In this document: one piece after another, positions 9,359-26,032 of the stretch
Layout of the letters: each line of letters opens with the position of its first letter
How positions within the stretch are numbered: position 1 is the first letter of the stretch
Origin: Planctomycetota bacterium
Lineage (GTDB): Bacteria > Planctomycetota > JAJSAM01 > JAJVHW01
Length of the DNA stretch: 64,000 nucleotides
Assembly (NCBI GenBank): GCA_022072415.1
Contig: JAJVHW010000006.1
Span: 4,958-68,957, forward strand
Direction: 5' to 3'
Notes under the pieces: generated by a model
Seen by the model: only the letters and a program-made list of their open reading frames with translations
Told to the model about the DNA's origin: nothing
The model's database searches: none
Program-made: the position numbers and the translations under genes

Positions 9359-9547
9359 GCCTGCGTTCAAGCGGAACGTGAAGGGGAGCACGGGCCGGAA
9401 GGTATCCGTCCCGCCCGCGGAATTCGACGTCCGCAGGGCGGGTCCCGGGCGGTGCGCCCGCGCGAACCGCGCGCGAGTCGGGATTTCCGACGGGAACCGG
9501 CGGGCGGCGGAGCATGGTACGGCGTCGTGACCCGGGAGGGCCTGGGG

Positions 9548-9934
9548 TTGCCCGATCTCACCCTGAAGTGCCGAGACTGCGGAGCCGACTTCGTCTTCAG
9601 CGAGGGCGACCAGAGCCGATTCGCGGAGCACGGCTACGCGCCGCCCCGGCGATGCAAGTCCTGCCGCGCGAGGCAGCGCACGCGCGCGGCCAGCACCGGC
9701 ACCGGCGTCGGCACCGGCGATTCGGGGAGGGCTCCCGGCGGCGTTCCCCAGGGGACCCCCGCGCCCGGCGGCGGCGCCGCGGGGGCGGACACGCCTCGCT
9801 CCCGCCCGAAGCCCGCGGGGCCGATGCACGACACCCGGTGCAGCGAGTGCGACGCGCCGACGCAGGTGCCGTTCGTGCCGGACGGACTTCGTCCGGTGTT
9901 CTGCCTCGCCTGCCTGAAGAAGCGCACGCGCTGA
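9548..9934 (+). CDS. Zinc-ribbon protein (two CxxC...CxxC pairs), probable TTG start
   Basis: Two Cys pairs are present: KCRDCGADFVFSEGDQSRFAEHGYAPPRRCKSCR and CSECDAPTQVPFVPDGLRPVFCLACL. GGAGGG at 9535-9540 lies 7 nt before TTG 9548. The ATG at 9452 gives an Arg-rich, implausible N-terminus. Confidence 0.5.
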   Translation: MPDLTLKCRDCGADFVFSEGDQSRFAEHGYAPPRRCKSCRARQRTRAASTGTGVGTGDSGRAPGGVPQGTPAPGGGAAGADTPRSRPKPAGPMHDTRCSECDAPTQVPFVPDGLRPVFCLACLKKRTR

Positions 9935-9968
9935 CGACGGCTCTCCGGCGCGGTCGCGGCGTGACGCC

Positions 9969-12071
9969 TCACCGCGACGGCTCGAGCCTTCCCGTCCCCT
10001 CGGTCGCCGTCCACGCCACCCGCGCGTCGCCGGCCGCCTCGGCGGGCACCTCGAAGGTCTCCGTCGCGCCCCAGGGCCACCGGACCGAGAGCCGGCGCAG
10101 ACGCCCGCCGCTCCCGAGCCCGAGGTGGACGCGCGTGTCCTCGCTGCCGCCGAAGGAGGAGCCGATCCGGACGTCGCGCACGATCGTCCCGCGCGCGCCG
10201 TCGGCGGCTTCCGTCACCGCGGTCACCTTCGCGCCGACGGCCACCGCCCCGTCCTTCCGCAGCACGCGGACCAGCGCCGCCCCGCCGCTCCCGCGGCCGT
10301 CGTTCCGCAGCACGACCGGCGCACCGTCGAGCACGGTCAGGACGAGATCGAGGTGCCCGTCGTCGTCGAGATCCGCGGCGAGGAGGCCTCGGTGCGCGCG
10401 CGGCACCGCCACGTCGCCCGCGTCGCTCGACACCTCGGTGAACCGGCCCGTGCCGTCGTTCCGCATCACGGCCGTGTGCTGGCGGTACGTCGTGTCGGGC
10501 GCCGCGGCGCGCACGTCGGGGTAGAGGTGCCCGTTGGCGTAGGCGAGGTCGAGGTCGCCGTCGTTGTCGAGGTCGGCGAACGACGCGCCCCAGCCCAGCG
10601 TCAGGAACCCGGGGCGGCCCACGCCGGACGCGCTCGTCACGTCGGCGAAGACCGGCGCGCCGGTCGCTCCCATCGAGCGGTAGAGGATGTTCGTCTCGTG
10701 GCTGAAGTTGGTGACGAAGAGGTCGGTCCGCCCGTCGCCGTCGGCGTCGCCCGCCGCGACGCCCATGCTCGCCTGCTCGGCGCCCTGTCCGTCGGACGCG
10801 CAGCCCGACTCGACCGCGGCGTCGCGGAAGCGCCCGCGTCCGTCGTTGAGGAGCAGCACGTTCTTCTGCGCGTCGGCCGCGACGTACACGTCCGGGTCCC
10901 CGTCGTCGTCGTAGTCGGCGACGACCGCCTGGAACGACCAGCGGCGGAGGTGCGGCGGAAGGCACGCGTCCGTGGCGTCGTCGAACGTGCCGTCGCCGCG
11001 GTTCAGGTACACGCGGTCGCGCTGCGGCTCGAGCGGCGCGGGGCCGCACGCGACCGGGAGCGATCGCCACGTGCAGGAGCGGCCGTGCGCCGACTCCTGC
11101 ATGAAGCGGTGCATGTTCGCGTAGTTCGCCACGTAGAGGTCGAGGTCGCCGTCGCCGTCGAAGTCGGACATCGCGGCCGACGTGCTCCACTCGTCCTCGC
11201 CGCCGCCGATCCCCGCGCCTTCGGACGCTTCGCGGAAGCGCATGCCCCCTTCGTTCAGGAACAGGCGGTTCCGGCCGAGGCACGCGACGTAGACGTCGAG
11301 CCGCCCGTCGCCGTTCACGTCCCCCGCCACGGCGCCGCAGCCCCATGCGTCGGCGCGGAGGCCGGACTGCCTCGACACGTCGGTGAAGCGGAATCCGCCG
11401 TCGTTCCGGTAGAGCCGCCAGGTCTCGCCGACCCGCTCGCCGCCGACCAGCGCGGCGGCGCCCGGGAAGAAGAGGTCGAGGTCGCCGTCGCCGTCCGCGT
11501 CGAACGCGCACGCGCCGTGCCCCGTGGTCTCGACCATCCAGTCCTTCGAGTCGAGGCGACCGCGGAGCGGCGCGGCGGTGATGCCCGACCCGCGCGTGAC
11601 GTTCGCGAACTGCGGGCCGTCGTAGCCGGGAACGTGCGGCGCGGCGAGCGCGTAGCCTTCGACGGGGTCCTCGGGGGTGGCGGGTCCGACGGTGCCCGAG
11701 TTCCAGGCCGCCCACCCGGCGACCGCGGCGAGGACCGCCGCGGCGGCCGCGGCGGCGCGCAGGCCCGCGCGACGCATCGGCGTCACCCGCCCCGCCGGGA
11801 GCGCGGACATCACGCGGGCCACGAGTGCGCGGTCGGCCTCGTGCTCCGACGCTGCGTCGGGGACGAGTTCGGCGCGGAGCAGGTCGGCCGTGGCGCGGAG
11901 CTCGTCGCGGAGCGCGGCGCAGTCCGGGCAGGCGGCGAGGTGCTCGACCATCGCCACGCGTTCGTGCGACGGGACTCCCGCCTCCTCGACGGGGATCGTG
12001 TCGCCGATCGTGCGCTCGAGCACGCGCTCCGCGGCGGCGCAGGCCGGCGGACGCGGGTCGCGGGCGGTCAC
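9969..12071 (-). CDS. Anti-sigma factor (zf-HC2, HLAACPDCAAL) fused through one TM helix to an extracytoplasmic FG-GAP/ASPIC-UnbV domain
   Basis: GTG start (VTARDPRPPACAAAERVLER) overlaps the sigma factor's stop (GTGA). One TM helix (AAAAAAVLAAVAGWAAW) is followed by DxDGDGxLD repeats and a C-terminal GSSFGGSEDTRVHLGLG. Confidence 0.75.
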   Translation of the reverse strand: MTARDPRPPACAAAERVLERTIGDTIPVEEAGVPSHERVAMVEHLAACPDCAALRDELRATADLLRAELVPDAASEHEADRALVARVMSALPAGRVTPMRRAGLRAAAAAAAVLAAVAGWAAWNSGTVGPATPEDPVEGYALAAPHVPGYDGPQFANVTRGSGITAAPLRGRLDSKDWMVETTGHGACAFDADGDGDLDLFFPGAAALVGGERVGETWRLYRNDGGFRFTDVSRQSGLRADAWGCGAVAGDVNGDGRLDVYVACLGRNRLFLNEGGMRFREASEGAGIGGGEDEWSTSAAMSDFDGDGDLDLYVANYANMHRFMQESAHGRSCTWRSLPVACGPAPLEPQRDRVYLNRGDGTFDDATDACLPPHLRRWSFQAVVADYDDDGDPDVYVAADAQKNVLLLNDGRGRFRDAAVESGCASDGQGAEQASMGVAAGDADGDGRTDLFVTNFSHETNILYRSMGATGAPVFADVTSASGVGRPGFLTLGWGASFADLDNDGDLDLAYANGHLYPDVRAAAPDTTYRQHTAVMRNDGTGRFTEVSSDAGDVAVPRAHRGLLAADLDDDGHLDLVLTVLDGAPVVLRNDGRGSGGAALVRVLRKDGAVAVGAKVTAVTEAADGARGTIVRDVRIGSSFGGSEDTRVHLGLGSGGRLRRLSVRWPWGATETFEVPAEAAGDARVAWTATEGTGRLEPSR

Positions 12072-12715
12072 TGTCCGTCCTCCATCCGTTCGCGGAGCTT
12101 CCGGAGCGCGCGGGAGATGCGCATCGCGACCGCGGGCGGCTGTTCGCCGAGTGCGGCGGCGATGTCCTTCACCGCCTGCCCTTCGCGGAATCGGAGGAGC
12201 AGGACGATCCGCGTCCTCTCGTCGAGCTCCGCCAGGTGTCCGAGCATGGTGCGCGTCTCCTCCGCCCGTTCCATCGCCGCGCCGGGAGCGGCGGCGCCGG
12301 GGTCGGCGAGTTCCTCGATCGTGCGGTCGGCGGAGTCGTCGCTCCCGCCGTCGCCGCCCCGTCCCGTCGCGGGGGCGAGCGGCCCCCCCGCCCGCCGCTT
12401 CCGGCGCCGGAGCTCCTCCAGCGCTCGGTGCGTGGCGATGGTCGAGAGCCACCCCGCGAACCGTTCCGGGTCGGCGAGCGACGGCAGGCGTTCGAACGCG
12501 GCGAGGAAGACATCCTGCGCCGCGTCCTCGGCCTCCGGCGACCTGCCGAGCCGGGCCGTGACGAGCGCGCGCACGACGCCCGCGTACTTCTCCGCGAGCC
12601 GCCCGAACGCGGAGCGGTCGCCCCCCCTTGCGAGGAGGACGAGCTCGGCGTCCTCGGCGAACCCGGCGGGAGCGTCGGTCATCGTGCGCCCGGCGTCCGT
12701 GCCCGGCCTGTGCAT
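12068..12715 (-). CDS. ECF (sigma-70 family) RNA polymerase sigma factor
   Basis: Region 2 (LLARGGDRSAFGRLAEKYAGVVRALV) and region 4 (EGQAVKDIAAALGEQPPAVAMRISRALRKLRE) are recognisable. It is translationally coupled to the anti-sigma gene. Confidence 0.85.
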   Translation of the reverse strand: MHRPGTDAGRTMTDAPAGFAEDAELVLLARGGDRSAFGRLAEKYAGVVRALVTARLGRSPEAEDAAQDVFLAAFERLPSLADPERFAGWLSTIATHRALEELRRRKRRAGGPLAPATGRGGDGGSDDSADRTIEELADPGAAAPGAAMERAEETRTMLGHLAELDERTRIVLLLRFREGQAVKDIAAALGEQPPAVAMRISRALRKLRERMEDGQ

Positions 12716-13042
12716 GGGAGGATGCTCCCCGACCCGCGCCGCAACACCGAGGGGAAGGGGACGCCCCGGCCGGACCCCATCCGCACCCCGAGCCTCGCAT
12801 CCGGCGCCGCCCCGCGACTCCCCGCACCCCCCCCCTGCCAGCCGCTTCCAACGAACCCGCGCCCAGACCCGCCGGGGGCGACGACGTCAGCCAGGTCTTC
12901 GGACGTCCGCAGGAAGCGAACAGGCTGTCGTGATCACTACAGATCCGCAGGCGCTCATCGCCCCGCCCGGCGTGCAGTCAGGGCAACGGGGCGACGCGAA
13001 CGGGAGCTTTCGAGTGTTTGAGAGCCGTCCCCGTTGGCCCGC

Positions 13043-13516
13043 TCATCCATCCTCTCCCCAGGCCCCATTGGACTCGGAGCAAAGGAAGACCGTTCGCCCC
13101 GGATACAACCCAAACGGATCTCGAATGATAACGTACCTTCCACCCAATCCCGGTCCCCAATCCGGGCGTGGCTCAATAAACCTAAACAGCGTGGGCCGAA
13201 GATCGATGCGCTCAGGTGCGATATCCATGACATTCATTCGAAGATACCCGCTCACGGCCGCGCTATGAGAGATTCGATGTTTCAACGTTTGCCCAGACAG
13301 TATCGACAACACGATCGCGATCACTCCCGCCGGACCGGAAACAATGGAGAACGATCGGACTAACAGCGACGACTTCCTGCACCTGTTCGCAAATGGCACA
13401 AACCACAAGAATGCAGCGATGGCGACTGCAATCACCGCGCCCGTGCGCGCGAATACCCAGGCAAGCATGAACGAAAGCAGCGTCCCGATCAACAGACGAA
13501 ACGTCCACTTATGCAT
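13043..13516 (-). CDS. Hypothetical membrane protein (low-GC cargo ORF)
   Basis: MHKWTFRLLIGTLLSFMLAWVF...AVAIAAFLWFVPF has 3-4 hydrophobic segments. Codon usage is atypical of the host. Confidence 0.45.
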   Translation of the reverse strand: MHKWTFRLLIGTLLSFMLAWVFARTGAVIAVAIAAFLWFVPFANRCRKSSLLVRSFSIVSGPAGVIAIVLSILSGQTLKHRISHSAAVSGYLRMNVMDIAPERIDLRPTLFRFIEPRPDWGPGLGGRYVIIRDPFGLYPGRTVFLCSESNGAWGEDG

Positions 13517-13699
13517 TGGCGGTACCTACTTACTCCTAAGCCTCTTCCACGTGATCGATCCACTTGAGCCGCATCCAGGAGCCGAGTTTCGACATCCGAA
13601 CCACACCGGCTTGTTGCCGCGTAGATGCCCGAAGAGCAGTGCGTACATGCAACACTCCTTGCAGCATTTTGACTGCCTCTCCTTGGACGCGCAGTTTCG

Positions 13700-14617
13700 A
13701 CCGCATCTGTGGTGTGCCAAGAAACGATTCCGGTTTGACGAGGGCGTTCACCGGACACCTCGGGTTCGTCTGATGAGTCCGAGTTCCTCCATCGATGCAT
13801 AGATCGCTTCACGCCGCGCCTTGCGCCGCGCTCGCTCCGATTCGACGCCCGGCAGGGCCTCGGCGAGACGACGGCTGAGGGTCGCGAGGAAGCGTTCACG
13901 AGTCCCAGCATCGTACCAACCCGTCAAGTCCGCGTCCGCCGCCGAGGCCGTCCTGTACCCGAGCCCTCTGCGCAGCCGCCGTTCGTCGAGCAGCGTTCTT
14001 GCCTTCTCGATGCGTGCACGGACCGGGGCGGCGTCGTTCACGACGACACCGCGGCCGAGACCCGTCTCCTCCTTCAGCTCGCGGTTCGTCCTCTCGACCC
14101 ACGCGCTGTGCTGCGGCGTGTGCGGCAGCAAGAGCGGATGCACGACGCCCTGCTCCTTCAGCCACTCCTCGACCGTCCCGCACCTGTAGATCGGGCCGTT
14201 GTCCGTCACAAGCACGAGCGGCAGGCGGCCGCGCTCCACGGCGATCCGCGTGAGGAGTCGCACGACCGCGTCGCCGTCCGCCGGAGCGCCGACCTCGGCG
14301 GCGAGGATCCTCGGCGTCGACACCTCGCGCACCACCTGCCCCTCGACCGCCTCCCCGCCTTCGGTGCGCGCGAGGTGCGTTCCGTCCATCGACCACATCA
14401 CGTCGCGGCCCCCGACCTCTACCGATGTGCGGTGTTCGGCCGCGTGCCCGCGCCGCTGCCTGCGGCGGCTCTGCTTGATCTCGGCGAGGCACTGCCGCAC
14501 GAGGCAGATCGTGAACTTCCGCCAGAAGTCCGGGACCGCCGACGTGCTCGACATCCACGCGCGCCTCGCCACGGCTCTTGAGAGGCTCCGCGAGCGCCAG
14601 CGCCGCACCTGACACAC
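13700..14617 (-). mobile_element. IS copy A: one terminus (TGTGGTGTGCCAAGAAACGATTCCGG) plus an N-terminally truncated rve/DDE transposase (13748..14617)
   Basis: The integrase core is recognisable (MWSMDGTHL, LVLVTDNGPIY, HSAWVERTNRELK). The N-terminal HTH is missing. Confidence 0.7.
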
Positions 14618-14671
14618 CGCCGGGTCCGGTGACTACGTGTCCTCTCCCACCGCGGGCGCACCTACCAGAGC

Positions 14672-14905
14672 GTGAAGGCGAGCCTGCGGATCACCCTCCG
14701 CCGGGCCGGGCTCGGCGACCGCCACGACCTCACGTTCCACAGCTTCCGCCACAGCTTCGCGACGTACTTCCTGGAGCGCGCCGGGGCGGTCACGGACCTC
14801 CAGCAGCAGCTCGGGCATGCGGACCTGAGCACGACGCAGATCTACGCGACGGGGGTCTCGGCGCGGCGGCGGGAGGCGGTGATGGGGATGGAGTTCGGCG
14901 GGTGA
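14672..14905 (+). pseudogene. C-terminal fragment of a tyrosine recombinase/phage integrase
   Basis: It contains [13 protein letters not shown]...[13 protein letters not shown] (the H-x-x-R, H and Y catalytic box). Only 77 aa remain, abutting IS copy A. Confidence 0.6.
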
Positions 14906-15005
14906 AGGGGAGCACGTCCGCATCCCGCTCCCGGACGCCCGAGGTGACGATCATCCGTCAGAAAGCAACCGAATGTCGTAATCCGTAGCCTGGAAACCGA
15001 TGTCA

Positions 15006-15413
15006 TCAACGTCCCGCCGGAACTCTGAATGACACCTCGCCGCGCGAGTTTGCACCCTCAATGGTCGGCTCACCCGCGTCGTCAAATCCGATCACAATTC
15101 GGGAGCCGGTGCCAGACAGCAGCTCCAACGCTGGGGAGTTGCCCCCACCGCCACGAGCGACCATCAGCCGGGCGTACGACTTGTGGTCTGGACCAATGAC
15201 CCCAACCGATGATCGTCCATGCTCCTGACTCCACTCCATAAACGCAATCTGGCGTGGCTCCGCCTCGTTTCCCACGCACAGCTGGCGGCGCGAGCTCTCG
15301 CCGAGCAGCGTGACGGTACGGTGCAGTCTTCGGAACTCGCGGAGTGCGCCGATCGAGGACACGACAATCAGGACCCCAAGAGTAGCCAACCAGAACATCG
15401 TCGCTCGAGTCAC
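15006..15413 (-). CDS. Hypothetical N-terminally membrane-anchored protein (low-GC cargo ORF, GTG start)
   Basis: GGAGGTGAG lies 8 nt before the GTG start. The anchor is MFWLATLGVLIVVSSIGAL. Confidence 0.5.
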   Translation of the reverse strand: MTRATMFWLATLGVLIVVSSIGALREFRRLHRTVTLLGESSRRQLCVGNEAEPRQIAFMEWSQEHGRSSVGVIGPDHKSYARLMVARGGGGNSPALELLSGTGSRIVIGFDDAGEPTIEGANSRGEVSFRVPAGR

Positions 15414-15549
15414 TCAACTCACCTCCGGTCGGGATCGAACTAGTGCCTTCTAGCCTTCATGAGATGCTAGTCAATCGAAAAGCCAGTTCCAGACCTTTGT
15501 CCAGATGCTGTCTCCGCCCGTATGTTCCTCGACGACTGGCTCGACCTCT

Positions 15550-15842
15550 AGGTCCGCAACAGCAGCACAGACGCGAGCAACGTCTCGATCGCCGCCTTTG
15601 ACCTCTACGGCGCGGGTCTCCGGCTGAAGAAGACCTCCTTCGGGAACGGCAACACCTCTGAGCTCGTCTACGACGGCTTCCGCCGCCCGGTCGAGATCAA
15701 CCACAAGCTCTCGGGGGGCAGCGAGTTCGCGGGGCAGGACTGCGCCTGGGACAAGAACGACAACCCCCTCATGGAGAAGCGGAGCCACGAGTCCGGGAAG
15801 GGCGACGTCTACACCTACGACAACCCTCAAGTTGATTGTTGA
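15550..15842 (+). pseudogene. RHS/YD-repeat protein fragment (no start codon)
   Basis: Translation gives AAFDLYGAGLRLKKTSFGNGNTSELVYDGFRRPVEINHKLSGGSEFAGQDCAWDKNDNPLMEKRSHESGKGDVYTYDNPQVDC, which carries YD-repeat motifs. It is a high-GC segment embedded in low-GC DNA. Confidence 0.55.
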
Positions 15843-15904
15843 GAGCGTCCCACTTGGCAACTCTTGACCGTACCCCGGCGCGACTGGCCCGGGTGAGTAT
15901 GACG

Positions 15905-16347
15905 CTACTTCTGCCCGGGTGAGTATCCGCTTGCGGGCGGCTCGGAGACGATGACGACAGAGGGCTCAACTACACGGCATTCAACTTTCAAGTCACGAAA
16001 AGCGTCACGAAGCCGAACAACGCCCGCGGGTCGCTTCGCCTCAAGGAGGCACTCCCCCGACACGGGAAACCCCAAGCGCTCCTTGATGCGACCGATCAAA
16101 GCTGTTGCACCGTAGCGATGAATCTCCGTCAACTTCAGATACTCCGAATCACCGACTTCCATCCACTGTCCGCGCCCACTCATCGCTAGCCCCCCGACTC
16201 CATGAACATCAACACAGAGATCTGTATCCCCACGTAGATGGGCGTTGTGATGCACCCAATAAGTGTGTTCATCGATGAACACCCACAGCGCGACGACGGC
16301 CGCCGTCGTGACCACTACAATCTTCAGCAACAGTCGGCGGTTCACAC
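15905..16347 (-). CDS. Hypothetical membrane-anchored protein (low-GC cargo ORF)
   Basis: MRVNRRLLLKIVVVTTAAVVALWVF is the likely anchor. Upstream codons of ORF 15905..16603 are alternate-frame IS sequence. Confidence 0.4.
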
Positions 16348-16404
16348 GCATGCCAGCTCTCGAGTGTGACTCATGAAGTGTGATGCATGAAGATAGCTCG
16401 CTTG

Positions 16405-16880
16405 AGCGACCTGTGGTGTGCCAAGAAGCGATTCCGGTTTGACGAGGGCGTTCACAGGTCACCTCGGGTTCGTCTGATGAGTCCGAACTCCTCCGTCGAC
16501 GCGAAGATCGCTTCACGCCGCGCCATGCGCCGCGCACGCTCCGATTCGAGGCCCGGCAGGGCCTCGGCGAGACGACGGCCGAGGGTCGCGAGGAAGTGCC
16601 CACAAGTCCCCGGATCGTACCACCTCGACACGTCGGCGTCCGCCGCCCCCGTCGTGCGCCGGCCGAGGCCGCGGTGGCGCCGCTCCTCGTTCAGCACACG
16701 GCGCGAGCACTCGATCCGTTCCCCAGCCTCGGCGGGCGTCCTCACGACGACCCCGCGGCCGCGGCCGGACACCTCCCTCAGCTCACGGTCCGTCCGCTCG
16801 CCCCGCGCGCTCTGCTGCGGCGTGAACGCCAGCGACAGCAGGTGCACGCGGGCATCGCTCAGGAAGTCCTCGTCCATGTC
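16405..16880 (-). mobile_element. IS copy B: same terminus plus a C-terminal 140 aa transposase fragment (16452..16877)
   Basis: The fragment is about 90% identical to copy C and about 75% to copy A. It is truncated within the TPQHSA codons. Confidence 0.65.
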
Positions 16881-17063
16881 ACCTCCGACGCCGGAGGTGA
16901 GCGTCAGTCGCGGGCGTCGAGTTGCGGTCAGCCCGGCGCGTCACGGGCGGAAGTGAGGAACGCGCGATGCCCGGCACGGCCCGGCTCGGCCGGCGGGTAC
17001 CTGGCACCGAGTGCATCACCGAGCGGTGGGTTTGTACCTGGCTCCGCATGACATGGCTCCGTG

Positions 17064-17684
17064 TTACCGCGAACCGACGCACGAAAGCTCCACTCGGATC
17101 AGCGCGTCTCCCCGAACATCAATGACGTCCTTTGAGATGTATCCGCGAGCCACCCCCCGAGAGAGGGATGAAACGTAGACCCAGAACTGCCCCCTTCGAG
17201 CCGTCGGGAACACGACGCCCTGTCGGTACACCTTCGCATTCATCACGCACCTGTGCCGGAGCTCGCTTGAACTCAGTCCGCGCACGTCATCGACTGACTT
17301 GCGAGGGATCAGTCCAGCGACTTCGGATTCGCCACCTTTCGGTAATGGACGCCGAACCAGTCTCAGCTCGACGCGGACGCCCCGAGCCAACGTGATCGAA
17401 ACGTGCACTGTCCGACCTTGAACTACAAGCCGAATGCTCCGCGCTTGATACGTCGACAAGTCTTTCACGGAGACAAGACGTAGCGACTCGCGGCCCGCTA
17501 TCACCTCAGCAAATCTCGGGGAGCCCTCACAGAGGGCTGTGAACTGACCCCGCGCATCCGTTTCGCAACGATACTCCGACAGCCACGCGCCGTCGGACGC
17601 GGTGAACGTGACTGCCACCTGCGCACACTCTACTGGAGTGCCGCTTCGACTGAGTACTCGTCCAACGACCGCGGTCGAACGCAT
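17064..17684 (-). CDS. Hypothetical protein with a carboxypeptidase-regulatory-like beta-sandwich N-terminus
   Basis: GAGGTGAG lies 6 nt before the ATG. The motif GTPVECAQVAVTFTASDG...TDARGQFTA resembles a CarboxypepD_reg domain. Confidence 0.45.
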   Translation of the reverse strand: MRSTAVVGRVLSRSGTPVECAQVAVTFTASDGAWLSEYRCETDARGQFTALCEGSPRFAEVIAGRESLRLVSVKDLSTYQARSIRLVVQGRTVHVSITLARGVRVELRLVRRPLPKGGESEVAGLIPRKSVDDVRGLSSSELRHRCVMNAKVYRQGVVFPTARRGQFWVYVSSLSRGVARGYISKDVIDVRGDALIRVELSCVGSR

Positions 17685-17744
17685 CAGCGCTCACCTCGCA
17701 TGAGTGCCCGCAACATGCGCACATTATGCCTCACAGGAAACACT

Positions 17745-18470
17745 GTGGTGTGCCAAGAAACGATTCCGGTTTGACGAGGGCGTTCACCGGTCACCTCGGG
17801 TTCGTCCGATGAGTCCGAACTCCTCCGTCGACGCGAAGATCGCTTCACGCCGCGCCATGCGCCGCGCACGCTCCGATTCGAGGCCCGGCAGGGCCTCGGC
17901 GAGACGACGGCCGAGGGTCGCGAGGAAGCGTCCACAAGTGCCCGGATCGTACCACCTCGACACGTTGGCGTCCGCCGCCCCCGTCGTGCGCCGGCCGAGG
18001 CCGCGGCGGCACCGCTCCTCGTTCAGCACGCGGCGCGAGCACTCGATCCGTACACCGGCCTCGGCGGGCGTCCTCACGACGACCCGGCGGCCGAGGTCGG
18101 ACGCCCTCTTCCGCTCACGGTTCGTCCGCTCGACCCGCGCGCTGTGCTGCGGCGTGTGCGGCCCGGTCTGGACGTGCGCGGCGCCTCGCCGCGCGGAGTG
18201 CATCGCGCCGCAGACGAGAGCGAGGGTCGTGCCGAACCGCCTTGCGGCGTCTGCCCAGGTCGTGCTGCGTGACGTGGCGTGGAGCGCGTGGAGTTCGTGG
18301 GTCGTCAACGCGCGACGGGATTCCGCTGCGAGCGCGGCGCATTGCGCGGCATGGACAGCGACATTGAGTGCCTCCCGTTCCCGGCCCCGCGGCCCCGCGG
18401 TCCCGTCGTCGCCGGCGCGCGGCCGCTGTGCCCGGGGGGAGCGCGGCTCGGCTCCCCGCTCCACCGCAGC
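17745..18470 (-). mobile_element. IS copy C: same terminus plus a truncated transposase fragment
   Basis: HTPQHSARVERTNRE...GLIGRTRGDR matches copies A and B. The breakpoint lies within 6 nt of copy B's breakpoint. Confidence 0.65.
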
Positions 18471-18513
18471 GGAACGTGACGTTCGCCCCCCGCCGCCGTC
18501 CTACACTCCGGCC

Positions 18514-19398
18514 ATGTCCACCGGCGCGCCTTCCGCCCCCGTCCGTCCCAGCTTCGCCGGGATCGTCCGCGTCCGCACCGGGCTCGACATCTACGTCGAA
18601 CGGCACGGCGAGCGCGGGCGGCCCCCGGTCATGCTCCTCATGGGCACCGGCGCCGACCACTCGCTCTGGAACGCCCAGGTCGAAGCGTACACGCGCGAGT
18701 TCGAGCTCGTCGTCATCGACTCCCGGGGGACCGGACGATCGACCCGTCCCGACGACCCGCGCACCTGCACGCCCCGGGCGATGGCCGAGGACGCGCTCGG
18801 CGTGCTCGACGCGCTCGGGATCGGCCGCGTCCACCTGGGCGGCCTGTCTCTGGGGTCCGCCGTCGCGCAGGAGGCCGCGCTCCTGGAACCCGACCGCCTG
18901 CTCTCGCTCTCCCTCCACGGCGCATGGGCGCGGAGCGACGAGTGGTTCCGCCGCTGCATCGACACGCTCGAGTACCCCGCCGCGCGAGGCGACGTGAAGG
19001 CGTACCTCCGCGCCGGGCTGATGTGGGTGCTCTCCCCGCACTTTCTCGCGACCGAACCGCCGGCGGTGGCCGACATCGAGCGCACGTACGTGGACGAGAA
19101 CCCACATCCGCCCTCCGGTCCGGGCATCTGCGGCCACACGCACGCCGACAAGATGCACGACACGCTCGATCGGCTCCCGTCGATCCGCGTCCGTACGCTG
19201 GTGACCGCGGGCGAGATGGACATCATCACGCCGCCCCGCTACGGCGAGGTCGTCGCCCGCTCGATCCCCGGCGCGCGCTACCACCTCTTCCGCGGCCCGC
19301 TCTCGTCGCACTGCGCGTGCATCGAGATGGCCGACGAGTGGAACCGCGTGACGCTCGCGTTCCTGCGGGGGGACGCGGTGGGCGAAGTCCTCGGATGA
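18514..19398 (+). CDS. Alpha/beta-fold hydrolase
   Basis: The nucleophile elbow HLGGLSLGSAV (GxSxG) is present, along with the conserved segment LLMGTGADHSLW. Confidence 0.8.
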   Translation: MSTGAPSAPVRPSFAGIVRVRTGLDIYVERHGERGRPPVMLLMGTGADHSLWNAQVEAYTREFELVVIDSRGTGRSTRPDDPRTCTPRAMAEDALGVLDALGIGRVHLGGLSLGSAVAQEAALLEPDRLLSLSLHGAWARSDEWFRRCIDTLEYPAARGDVKAYLRAGLMWVLSPHFLATEPPAVADIERTYVDENPHPPSGPGICGHTHADKMHDTLDRLPSIRVRTLVTAGEMDIITPPRYGEVVARSIPGARYHLFRGPLSSHCACIEMADEWNRVTLAFLRGDAVGEVLG

Positions 19399-25159: not shown

Positions 25160-26032
25160 TCACCCCTCGAACGAGTACCCCGCCAGGAACGGCTCGGACG
25201 CGATCAGCGCGTCGATGCGGCGGCGGTGATCGGGGGTGAAGGGGAACGTGTCGCGGCTTCGGCGGGGCGACGGGAAGATCACGGCGGCGCAAGCGTCGAG
25301 GAACGGCGGCGGAGCGTCGAGCCCGACGAAGGAGCAGAGGCGGCGGACCTCGCGGCGCGGGTCGGCGATCACGTCCTCGTGGCGGACGTCGAGGACGGAG
25401 CCGCGGCGGAACGCGTCGTCCCACACTCCGGCCGCGTCGCGGATCCTCGCGACGCCGCGGACGAGGCCGGACGTGACGTCGATCAGCTTCTCCATCGGCG
25501 CGCCGCTCCGCCGGTGGCGCGTCGCGAGGATGTCGTACGGATTCCGCGCCACGTGGACCAGCCTCGGCGGCGCGCCGAAGAGCGCCGCGGCGCGCGCGAG
25601 GAGCGTGGGTTCGGCGGAGAGGCGGCGCACGGAGCGGGCGCCCTTCTTGTCGCCCATCACACGGAGGTCGCCCGTCGCGCCCTGCCCGGCGCCGGGGACG
25701 GCGTACGAGTAGTCCATCCACTTCCGGTCCATCGCCTCGAACTGGCGGCCGTTCTCGAGGACGAGGGAGAGGATCTCCTCGCGCGAGAACCCGCGGTCTA
25801 CGAAGTGGAAGAGGTCGAGTTCGTGCGCGACCGCGGCCTGCGGGTGCGCGTCGAGGAGCGACCCGAACAGGCTGTGGCCCGAGCGCGGGTAGCCGATGAA
25901 GACGACCACCGTCTTCACGCCCGCGAAGAGCGGCGCCTCGCGGCGCGCGGCGTCGGCCGAGAACGTGCGGAGGAGTCCGACGTCGGCCTCCGGGTATCGC
26001 TTGATGCCGACGCACGGCGGGACGGGCGTCAC
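25160..26032 (-). CDS. Sulfotransferase family protein (GTG start overlapping the ABC gene stop)
   Basis: The PAPS 5'-phosphosulfate-binding-like loop VVFIGYPRSGHSLFGSLL is present. It occupies the 3' portion of ORF 25160..28678. Confidence 0.7.
   Translation of the reverse strand: MTPVPPCVGIKRYPEADVGLLRTFSADAARREAPLFAGVKTVVVFIGYPRSGHSLFGSLLDAHPQAAVAHELDLFHFVDRGFSREEILSLVLENGRQFEAMDRKWMDYSYAVPGAGQGATGDLRVMGDKKGARSVRRLSAEPTLLARAAALFGAPPRLVHVARNPYDILATRHRRSGAPMEKLIDVTSGLVRGVARIRDAAGVWDDAFRRGSVLDVRHEDVIADPRREVRRLCSFVGLDAPPPFLDACAAVIFPSPRRSRDTFPFTPDHRRRIDALIASEPFLAGYSFEG

Follow-up and report, generated by a model that had tools for sequence, protein, structure and literature searches.

A low-GC island in a Planctomycetota genome: a probable decayed pile-up of insertion-sequence right ends and the DNA joined to them

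How did a block of low-GC DNA, in which fragments of an insertion sequence (IS) alternate with small open reading frames (ORFs), come to stand in a GC-rich planctomycete genome? The question arises at 13–18 kb of a 64,000-nt stretch of Planctomycetota DNA (GenBank assembly GCA_022072415.1, contig JAJVHW010000006.1, positions 4,958 to 68,957), called here the window. GC content is ~0.72–0.78 throughout the window and falls to ~0.6 only at 13–18 kb (1-kb resolution). An initial annotation had noted this abrupt drop between host-like borders and had read the region as three decayed copies of one IS, each followed by a small ORF; toxin/immunity, orphan-cassette or integron-like cargo mobilised by the IS was offered as its meaning. 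The observation is confirmed as real and largely accurate, and the interpretation is partly supported. On balance, the region is probably a decayed pile-up of IS-plus-cargo units, each an IS right end with low-GC DNA attached, at a permissive intergenic site.

The low-GC stretches of the island have a GC content of 0.55–0.63 against a genome background of 0.72–0.78, and the IS and recombinase fragments among them are themselves at 0.70–0.75; the island is therefore a GC mosaic. Its most regular component is a 44-nt terminus found three times on one strand, at 13708, 16412 (one mismatch) and 17744, with no match in shuffled sequence. These are real IS ends. Self-comparison extends them into co-oriented direct repeats of 420–800 bp: A (13707–14144, extending to 14503), B (16411–16848) and C (17743–18162). 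B and C are 94% identical over 414 nt, and A is 81–82% identical to either. All three stop at the same nucleotide, beyond which the DNA is unrelated in each. The IS-derived features, together with the recombinase fragment that adjoins copy A, are as follows.

13707..14503, minus strand: IS copy A; codons 64–314 of the third gene of the element (a second rve protein) and the right inverted repeat (13708–13751)
16411..16877, minus strand: IS copy B, a pseudogene; third-gene codons ~175–312 and the right inverted repeat (16412–16455)
17743..18194, minus strand: IS copy C, a pseudogene; third-gene codons ~179–314 and the right inverted repeat (17744–17787)
12913..12941, plus strand: IS_D, solo right inverted repeat pointing into the island, from another sub-lineage of this IS family
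14503..14914, plus strand: 3' fragment of a tyrosine recombinase gene, ~135 codons, with an intact ORF at 14642–14905; head-on to the truncated copy A

At least four copies of one IS family are thus represented by their right-hand ends, three of them co-oriented and one solo end facing them; the copies fall into two sub-lineages. IS_D matches the right end of a related locus (L012) at 23/29 nt from end to end (z=5.7), and its alignments to 12 loci stop exactly at the IS terminus. It faces copy A across the segment that carries the small ORF o157, which thus lies between two right ends. The three copies seen initially stand as a co-oriented set, to which this fourth end is now added. The differing amounts of rve sequence in them are also real, and belong to a third, accessory rve gene instead of the IS481-type transposase. 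The window copies retain only the 3' part of the last gene and the right repeat; ORF1, ORF2 and a left end are missing from the window.

Copy A encodes a 289-residue rve protein (Pfam rve, E=2e-7), compared with 314 residues in intact relatives, and shows 74% amino-acid identity to residues 64–314 of ORF3 at locus L007. The ratio of nonsynonymous to synonymous substitution rates (Ka/Ks) is 0.29 for A against L007 and 1.41 for B against C; copies B and C drift neutrally as pseudogenes. We infer that nothing in the window can now transpose. The nucleotide homology of copy A to L007 ends at 14503, which is the exact start of opposite-strand homology to the tyrosine recombinase gene of locus L052. 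One deletion therefore fused two divergent genes, that of copy A and that of the recombinase, head-on.

Beyond copy C lies a further GC-rich stretch.

18195..18472, minus strand: GC-rich stretch between copy C and host DNA

It may be what is left, after heavy decay, of the 5' part and left end of copy C, a similarity that does not reach significance. If 18195–18464 were the remnant of an ORF1 N-terminus, copy C would be an element with an internal deletion; the match was not significant (z<=3.4), and in BLASTP against the fusion ORF of locus L008 the third-gene part alone aligned. A left-end-like TGCGGTGGAG at ~18463–18472 is weak and suggestive only. Left ends and surrogate right ends were sought across the island, with 5 weak matches (15–16/26 nt) against 4.7 expected by chance. 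Two details of the spacers may be recorded here: the distance from right end to ORF start is 58–59 nt in both B and C, and a 14-nt tandem repeat, TTCATGCATCACAC / TTCATGAGTCACAC, lies in the spacer that separates the copy B right end from the ORF o148 (16331–16410, minus strand).

The complete form of the element is seen in relatives. Related loci were found via a motif in the third gene (ORF3), most of them on short contigs; a scan of a genome collection gave 7 loci, and the source genome was not among them. A three-gene order is conserved in ~25 related loci, and the window repeats correspond to its last gene and right inverted repeat. ORF1 is a helix-turn-helix and rve transposase of IS481 type by Pfam domains and NCBIfam: at L027 it scores 232.9 bits and passes the NCBIfam IS481 cut-off of 224, and at L059 it falls just below (210). 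ORF2 encodes a small helix-turn-helix/coiled-coil protein, and ORF3 a second, divergent rve protein, which stays below the cut-offs for both IS3 (75 vs 160) and IS481 (70 vs 224) and is only ~30% identical to IS3 transposases in a plasmid collection. Both inverted repeats (25–40 bp) were located in ten complete elements of 2,959–3,357 bp with ends 5'-TGT...ACA-3', among them the following.

L027: 444–3402
L037: 472–3623
L040: 153–3218
L012: 5784–8926
L013: 5805–9073

Members of the IS481 family are ~1–1.3 kb long and carry a single transposase gene. The present element resembles them in the first gene of its relatives, in its TGT...ACA ends and in the occurrence of the same end beside unrelated flanks; unlike them, it spans 3.0–3.4 kb and has two extra genes, including the second rve protein. 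The family is described as having TGT...ACA termini and target duplications of 2–15 bp (PMC10045372). In contrast, no target duplication was found at any of the ten complete copies, which could reflect recombination between copies. We could not find a description of such a three-gene IS481-family element.

The right-end sequence recurs, conserved, at ~30 loci, whose similarity breaks off precisely at ...ACA; across 29 flanks, no conserved motif or recombination site abuts it. Truncated copies also occur in relatives, at L010 and L058, each with a co-oriented downstream ORF. At L008/L010 (2219–3100), an internal deletion has joined the helix-turn-helix region of ORF1 (PYTPEERCAAIEALAKSG), in frame, to about residue 107 of ORF3; next come the right end and an ORF of 571 residues whose N-terminus includes a hydrophobic stretch.

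What lies beyond the right end in these relatives bears most directly on the island. In all 8 elements for which both flanks are available, the right flank has the lower GC content (left 0.52–0.70, right 0.48–0.62); in long contigs the dip past the right end lasts 1.2–1.8 kb, after which host GC returns. An Rhs core tail or YD repeats, oriented as the IS is, form the right flank in 6 of 29 cases. Core-tail motifs stand at the right end of five loci (L016, L017, L019, L027 and L030), fall within 0–53 codons of the cleavage motif and are always co-oriented; at the sixth, L038, the flank opens with co-oriented YD repeats. The five tails open as follows.

L027: LQRDPLGYANGPCLFEY...DPSG
L019: FAYVRSRSTILTDPTGL
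L030: ANQYEYGSSRPFSGTDPTG
L016: RYLRPVIGRWCTRDP...DPLGL
L017: HPYGLAG

Against the PDB, the five best matches of the L016 flank were TcC/Rhs proteins aligned at the ...DPxGL cleavage motif, each individually weak (best E=0.23). At several loci the C-terminal module is followed by a larger ORF whose N-terminus resembles, by eye, a lipoprotein signal or a transmembrane (TM) segment, and a metallopeptidase motif was seen in the L022 flank. Only at L027 and L016 can the left flank of a copy with an Rhs tail on its right be seen; it is not rhs at either locus, and simple insertion into an intact rhs gene therefore does not explain these two. Comparison of the flanks backs a link between this IS family and Rhs systems. 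Two further arrangements were noted among the relatives. L042 (1178–3930) has an IS, 2.75 kb of low-GC DNA and the left end of the next copy in direct orientation, a compound-transposon-like layout, and L016 (4048–4121) has the right inverted repeat in tandem (37 nt x2) directly upstream of the Rhs core tail.

The window itself holds one fragment of this kind.

15552..15839, plus strand: YD/RHS-repeat-like fragment, 96 codons, on the strand opposite to the IS copies

It is 58% identical (E=2e-19) to the YD-repeat ORF of L038 that starts at a related IS right end. Its sole Pfam match, RHS_repeat, is sub-threshold at E=0.08. The YD/RHS identity first proposed for it is thus plausible by homology to the relative and stays below the cut-off of the domain library. 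Sequence searches of the PDB with this fragment and with the L038 flank gave no matches.

The island occupies ~12777 to ~18472, ~5.7 kb in the intergenic gap between two divergent host genes; the limits of 12950–18480 set initially are corrected accordingly. Its surroundings and edges comprise the following.

12068..12715, minus strand: host extracytoplasmic function (ECF) sigma-factor gene, left flank, outside the island; Pfam Sigma70_r2/r4 on record; adjoins the hydrolase gene in L057
12777..12912, no strand assigned: GC-rich filler at the left edge, missing from L057 (alignment stops at ~12776) and covered by L003 and L005
12942..13042, no strand assigned: 100 nt in common with the 98%-identical strain L003, whose sequence differs past 13042
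18514..19398, plus strand: host alpha/beta-hydrolase gene, right flank, outside the island

L057, a relative with ~80% nucleotide identity, aligns to window positions 11632–12776 and again from ~18411–18473 (confidently from ~18473). Its ECF sigma-factor and hydrolase genes stand 112 nt apart, and the island is therefore an insertion. L003 aligns to 13042..11374 and then continues into 144 nt of unrelated sequence; its point of divergence, 13042, is the stop codon of o157. The island is a foreign insertion of ~5.7 kb whose content differs between close strains; the initial annotation had proposed that its presence be checked in other genomes of the species. The filler at 12777..12912 is possibly the decayed tail of a fourth IS copy. 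No match to the island DNA was found in plasmid and phage collections, an Rfam scan returned nothing at E<=1, and a promoter and terminator scan showed no enrichment.

In the explanation that we favour, each IS copy would have arrived already joined at its right end to low-GC accessory DNA, as in relatives today, where the adjoining DNA is often an Rhs toxin tip and a downstream ORF. Successive IS-plus-cargo units would then have accumulated at one site in the same orientation, either by insertion into or beside a resident copy or by recombination between IS copies. The 5' parts may have been lost afterwards, through recombination between direct repeats or through plain deletion of the kind seen at 14503, and the four small ORFs would be the remains of the cargo. 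Two routes to the present layout can be envisaged and are indistinguishable here. New units may have entered the resident IS repeatedly, followed by recombination between the direct 5' repeats; or a circle carrying the IS 3' part and cargo may have integrated by a single crossover.

Several observations weigh against this account. Neither a complete IS nor a surrogate right end turned up, and no target duplication was seen around a whole unit, so that co-mobilisation of cargo is conjectural. By chance, 3 of 3 copies would keep the same end in the same orientation with a probability of ~1 in 16, and the events behind B and C may be linked. Sampling through an ORF3 motif misses copies without that part and is biased towards copies that keep the right end. 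The cargo of relatives is mixed and includes a PD-(D/E)XK nuclease and a CarboxypepD_reg protein. No recognisable toxin or immunity family is present in the window. The public short-read contigs break at repeats, and the internal order from 13754 to 17808 comes from the metagenome-assembled genome (MAG) assembly alone. Among relatives, unit-level target duplications were sought in L012, L013 and L016, with none convincing; the one 10-mer match, at L013, falls within coding sequence and has nothing end-like next to it. The initial idea that cargo was mobilised by the IS may still be right, but the surrogate ends or unit-level duplications that would mark such a unit were not found.

The alternative that survives best is a plain graveyard. 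The low-GC foreign island would have existed beforehand, an IS that tolerates or prefers such DNA would have inserted independently several times, random deletions would have followed, and the succession of IS and ORF would be a coincidence. The orientation and retained-end pattern is only weakly non-random, the unrelated recombinase and YD-repeat fragments suggest general decay, and the 14503 junction is a simple deletion between two divergent genes. The failure to find transposition-unit ends and the sampling bias, on contigs that are mostly short, point the same way. The relatives argue in the other direction. Insertion into a pre-existing island predicts low GC on both sides of an element; in 8 of 8 relatives GC falls from precisely the right end onwards and is host-like on the left, which therefore counts against independent insertion. 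The lack of target duplications at all ten complete copies and the Rhs tails, so close to the cleavage motif and always co-oriented, also speak against such a graveyard. We regard it as an unlikely history, if one to be taken seriously.

Whether anything in the island still works depends on the four small ORFs that lie between the IS ends.

13043..13516, minus strand: o157, low-GC ORF with three TM segments predicted from hydropathy
15006..15413, minus strand: o135, low-GC ORF with one N-terminal TM segment; GGAGGTGAG 4 nt from its GTG start
15905..16351, minus strand: o148, low-GC ORF with one N-terminal TM segment predicted from hydropathy
17064..17684, minus strand: o206, low-GC ORF with no TM segment, preceded by GAGGTGAG

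All four are co-oriented with the IS ends, and GC at their third codon positions (GC3) is 0.63–0.69, against ~0.9 in host genes. A distinct low-GC ORF on the same strand thus does follow each copy, and three of the ORFs are predicted to be membrane-anchored, both as first described. The Shine-Dalgarno sequence said to be common to two of them is not: GGAGGTGAG precedes o135 only, and o206 has cGAGGTGAG. The public record annotates one of the four. A minus-strand ORF as long as those in three low-GC segments has a chance probability of 0.057 (o157), 0.073 and 0.014 (o206), each weak alone; Fisher combination of the three values, done by hand and not as tool output, gives ~0.003. Some of the small ORFs were therefore probably once real genes, possibly for membrane-anchored immunity-type proteins.

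Homology says little of what they encoded. Scans of the four with Pfam, NCBIfam, PADLOC and PHROGs gave nothing above cut-off and no immunity family, so the comparison with toxin and immunity domain libraries first suggested for them came back empty; for o135 these scans were the only search applied. No homologues of o148 or o157 were found in an index of 5.8 billion proteins, and for o206 an exhaustive search recovered the ORF itself and, beyond it, nothing but weak partial matches to long repeat proteins. The N-terminus of o206 is weakly CarboxypepD_reg-like (Pfam E=4e-4, below cut-off). Single-sequence AlphaFold2 models were unusable, with a predicted local distance difference test (pLDDT) score of 39.5 for o206 and 47.6 for o148, in which the TM helix is the sole confident part. 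No DPxGL motif was found in three frames downstream of the window IS ends, and no toxin domain lies between an IS end and its ORF. The C-terminus of o157 (13046–13110, minus strand) reads GGRYVIIRDPFGLYPG, which is reminiscent of the Rhs tail motif GRWxxxDPxG in its first half and sits exactly where the 98%-identical strain diverges; the resemblance may be chance.

These ORFs could be read as a working orphan array, in which small membrane-anchored products, immunity-type or otherwise useful, are expressed from or through the upstream IS remnants and kept by selection. Their shared orientation with the IS ends, three TM anchors, two good Shine-Dalgarno sequences and lengths jointly above chance are consistent with this, as are the Rhs tips of relatives with their downstream ORFs, several of which have lipoprotein-like or TM N-termini by eye. 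Decayed toxin/immunity clusters disrupted by IS are also documented to leave orphan immunity genes (PMC11481896). The near absence of homologues of o148, o157 and o206 among billions of proteins, the empty domain scans, the low-confidence models and the lack of promoter-like sites all speak against present function, and o157 is absent at this site in L003. We consider a working array improbable. The toxin/immunity origin proposed initially is plausible by analogy with relatives, whose IS ends abut Rhs tails or YD repeats; the window itself shows no toxin domain, DPxGL motif or immunity family.

An error of assembly would remove the array altogether: the MAG contig may have mis-joined repeat-bounded pieces. 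Independent short-read assemblies all break inside the repeats, and B and C are similar enough over 414 nt to invite such a join. Set against this, both island edges are 100% identical in four other sequencing runs, including the termini of A and C with their unique flanks; o206 is present on independent contigs; the 19% divergence of A from B and C suffices for an assembler to separate them; and a mis-join could permute units but not create them. An artefact is very improbable.

The remaining alternative turns on the recombinase fragment. Its identification as an integrase piece is sound (Pfam Phage_integrase, E=1e-12), it shows 87% nucleotide identity to L052 9820–10232, and its 90% cluster contains a 454-aa integrase. 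L052 (Planctomycetota, GCA_034680565.1) has four co-oriented 3' fragments of the same gene, at 1373–1561, 9534–10225, 13620–13701 and 17510–17698, all ending at the stop codon and interleaved with 3.5–8.6 kb of cargo. At L052, units appear to have accreted in tandem at a site within the 3' end of the recombinase gene. Such an arrangement raises the idea that the island ORFs were cassettes moved by a tyrosine recombinase, in an integron-like or Xer-cassette-like array. The best NCBIfam matches of the fragment are indeed Xer and integron integrases, at 29–58 bits, far below cut-offs of 220–435. Elements of the IS481-related IS1202 family also abut Xer sites: the ISAba32 group targets XerCD sites with its left end 5 bp from a conserved site and makes 5-bp duplications (10.1101/2022.12.17.520857). 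The island resembles that group in having an IS481-related IS at cassette boundaries in fixed orientation, and differs in that the right end is used, no conserved motif abuts it and no duplications are seen. A dif-like string noticed by eye in the flank of copy C does not hold up as an Xer site. With one truncated recombinase fragment lying among the supposed cassettes, no intact intI, no attC-like inverted repeats or Rfam match, no conserved imperfect palindrome of 20–30 nt seen at both ends of the low-GC segments, no motif abutting 29 right ends, and an IS end as the repeated boundary element, the integron-like reading is to be abandoned as extremely improbable.

Two features of the wider window complete the description of the locus. 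Downstream of the ECF sigma-factor gene, 9969–12851 (minus strand) encodes a 960-residue protein of the host context that has, by eye, an anti-sigma-like N-terminus and then FG-GAP/VCBS-type repeats. At 25350–25438 (plus strand), ARAGORN predicts a tRNA-His whose anticodon stands at position 30; its 89 nt make it an unusually long tRNA.

If a decayed pile-up of IS-plus-cargo units is the right description, the nearest known systems can be set beside it. IS26 is reportedly found in translocatable units and pseudo-compound transposon arrays. It belongs to the IS6 family and has one gene; the copies in its arrays are complete, and new units add next to a resident copy. In layout only, the window and L042 are similar, with direct IS copies alternating with unrelated cargo and no target duplications; unlike IS26, the transposase here is of IS481 type, there are three genes, and the window copies are right-end stubs only. 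For this family, a circular unit or the conservative targeted integration of IS26 would be conjecture. ISEcp1-type elements mobilise adjacent DNA in a one-ended manner. The cargo here likewise lies beyond the right end only and is co-oriented with the transposase, but no surrogate right end is present in the window and no unit-level target duplication was seen in relatives.

Rhs orphan toxin/immunity arrays come close in architecture: tandem co-oriented units each begin with a variable-length 3' piece ending at one fixed point, followed by lower-GC variable DNA with small ORFs, and their content varies between strains. Here, in contrast, the conserved piece is an IS end and not the rhs core, the reading frame stops at the boundary, and the window has no toxin domain or DPxGL motif. 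No candidate for a main rhs gene beside the island appeared in the GC3-filtered list of long ORFs, a list that was not Pfam-scanned. H-rpt/ISAs1 elements reportedly lie inside E. coli Rhs elements, and such IS-in-Rhs or toxin clusters share with the present family an IS inside or beside an Rhs/toxin locus; the IS family differs, and here it is specifically the right end, in one orientation, that is involved. Given the wrong transposase family, the lack of a surrogate end or unit-level duplication, and an IS end in place of the rhs core, the island lacks the defining features of IS26 arrays, ISEcp1-type units and Rhs orphan arrays, respectively.

Taken alone, the island is of little consequence, being ordinary and inert debris of mobile DNA in a permissive intergenic gap of an uncultured planctomycete. 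The lead worth keeping is the comparative pattern of a foreign low-GC right flank, a host-like left flank and no target duplications, with about one-fifth of the flanks examined starting within the last few dozen codons of the Rhs core. A bolder reading, which we hold only tentatively and consider rather doubtful, is that the three-gene IS481-family lineage is a dedicated carrier of accessory modules. DNA would be captured at the right end, above all Rhs toxin tips severed a short way upstream of DPxGL together with their immunity genes, and such units would be moved or recombined between genomes without target duplications; co-oriented arrays would be built in this way, with the second rve protein as part of the mechanism and the window as a fossil array. 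If the pattern reflects mechanism rather than sampling, toxin tips and immunity genes would have a way to spread and accumulate, and there would be a concrete case in which to study the role of a second rve protein in a transposon.

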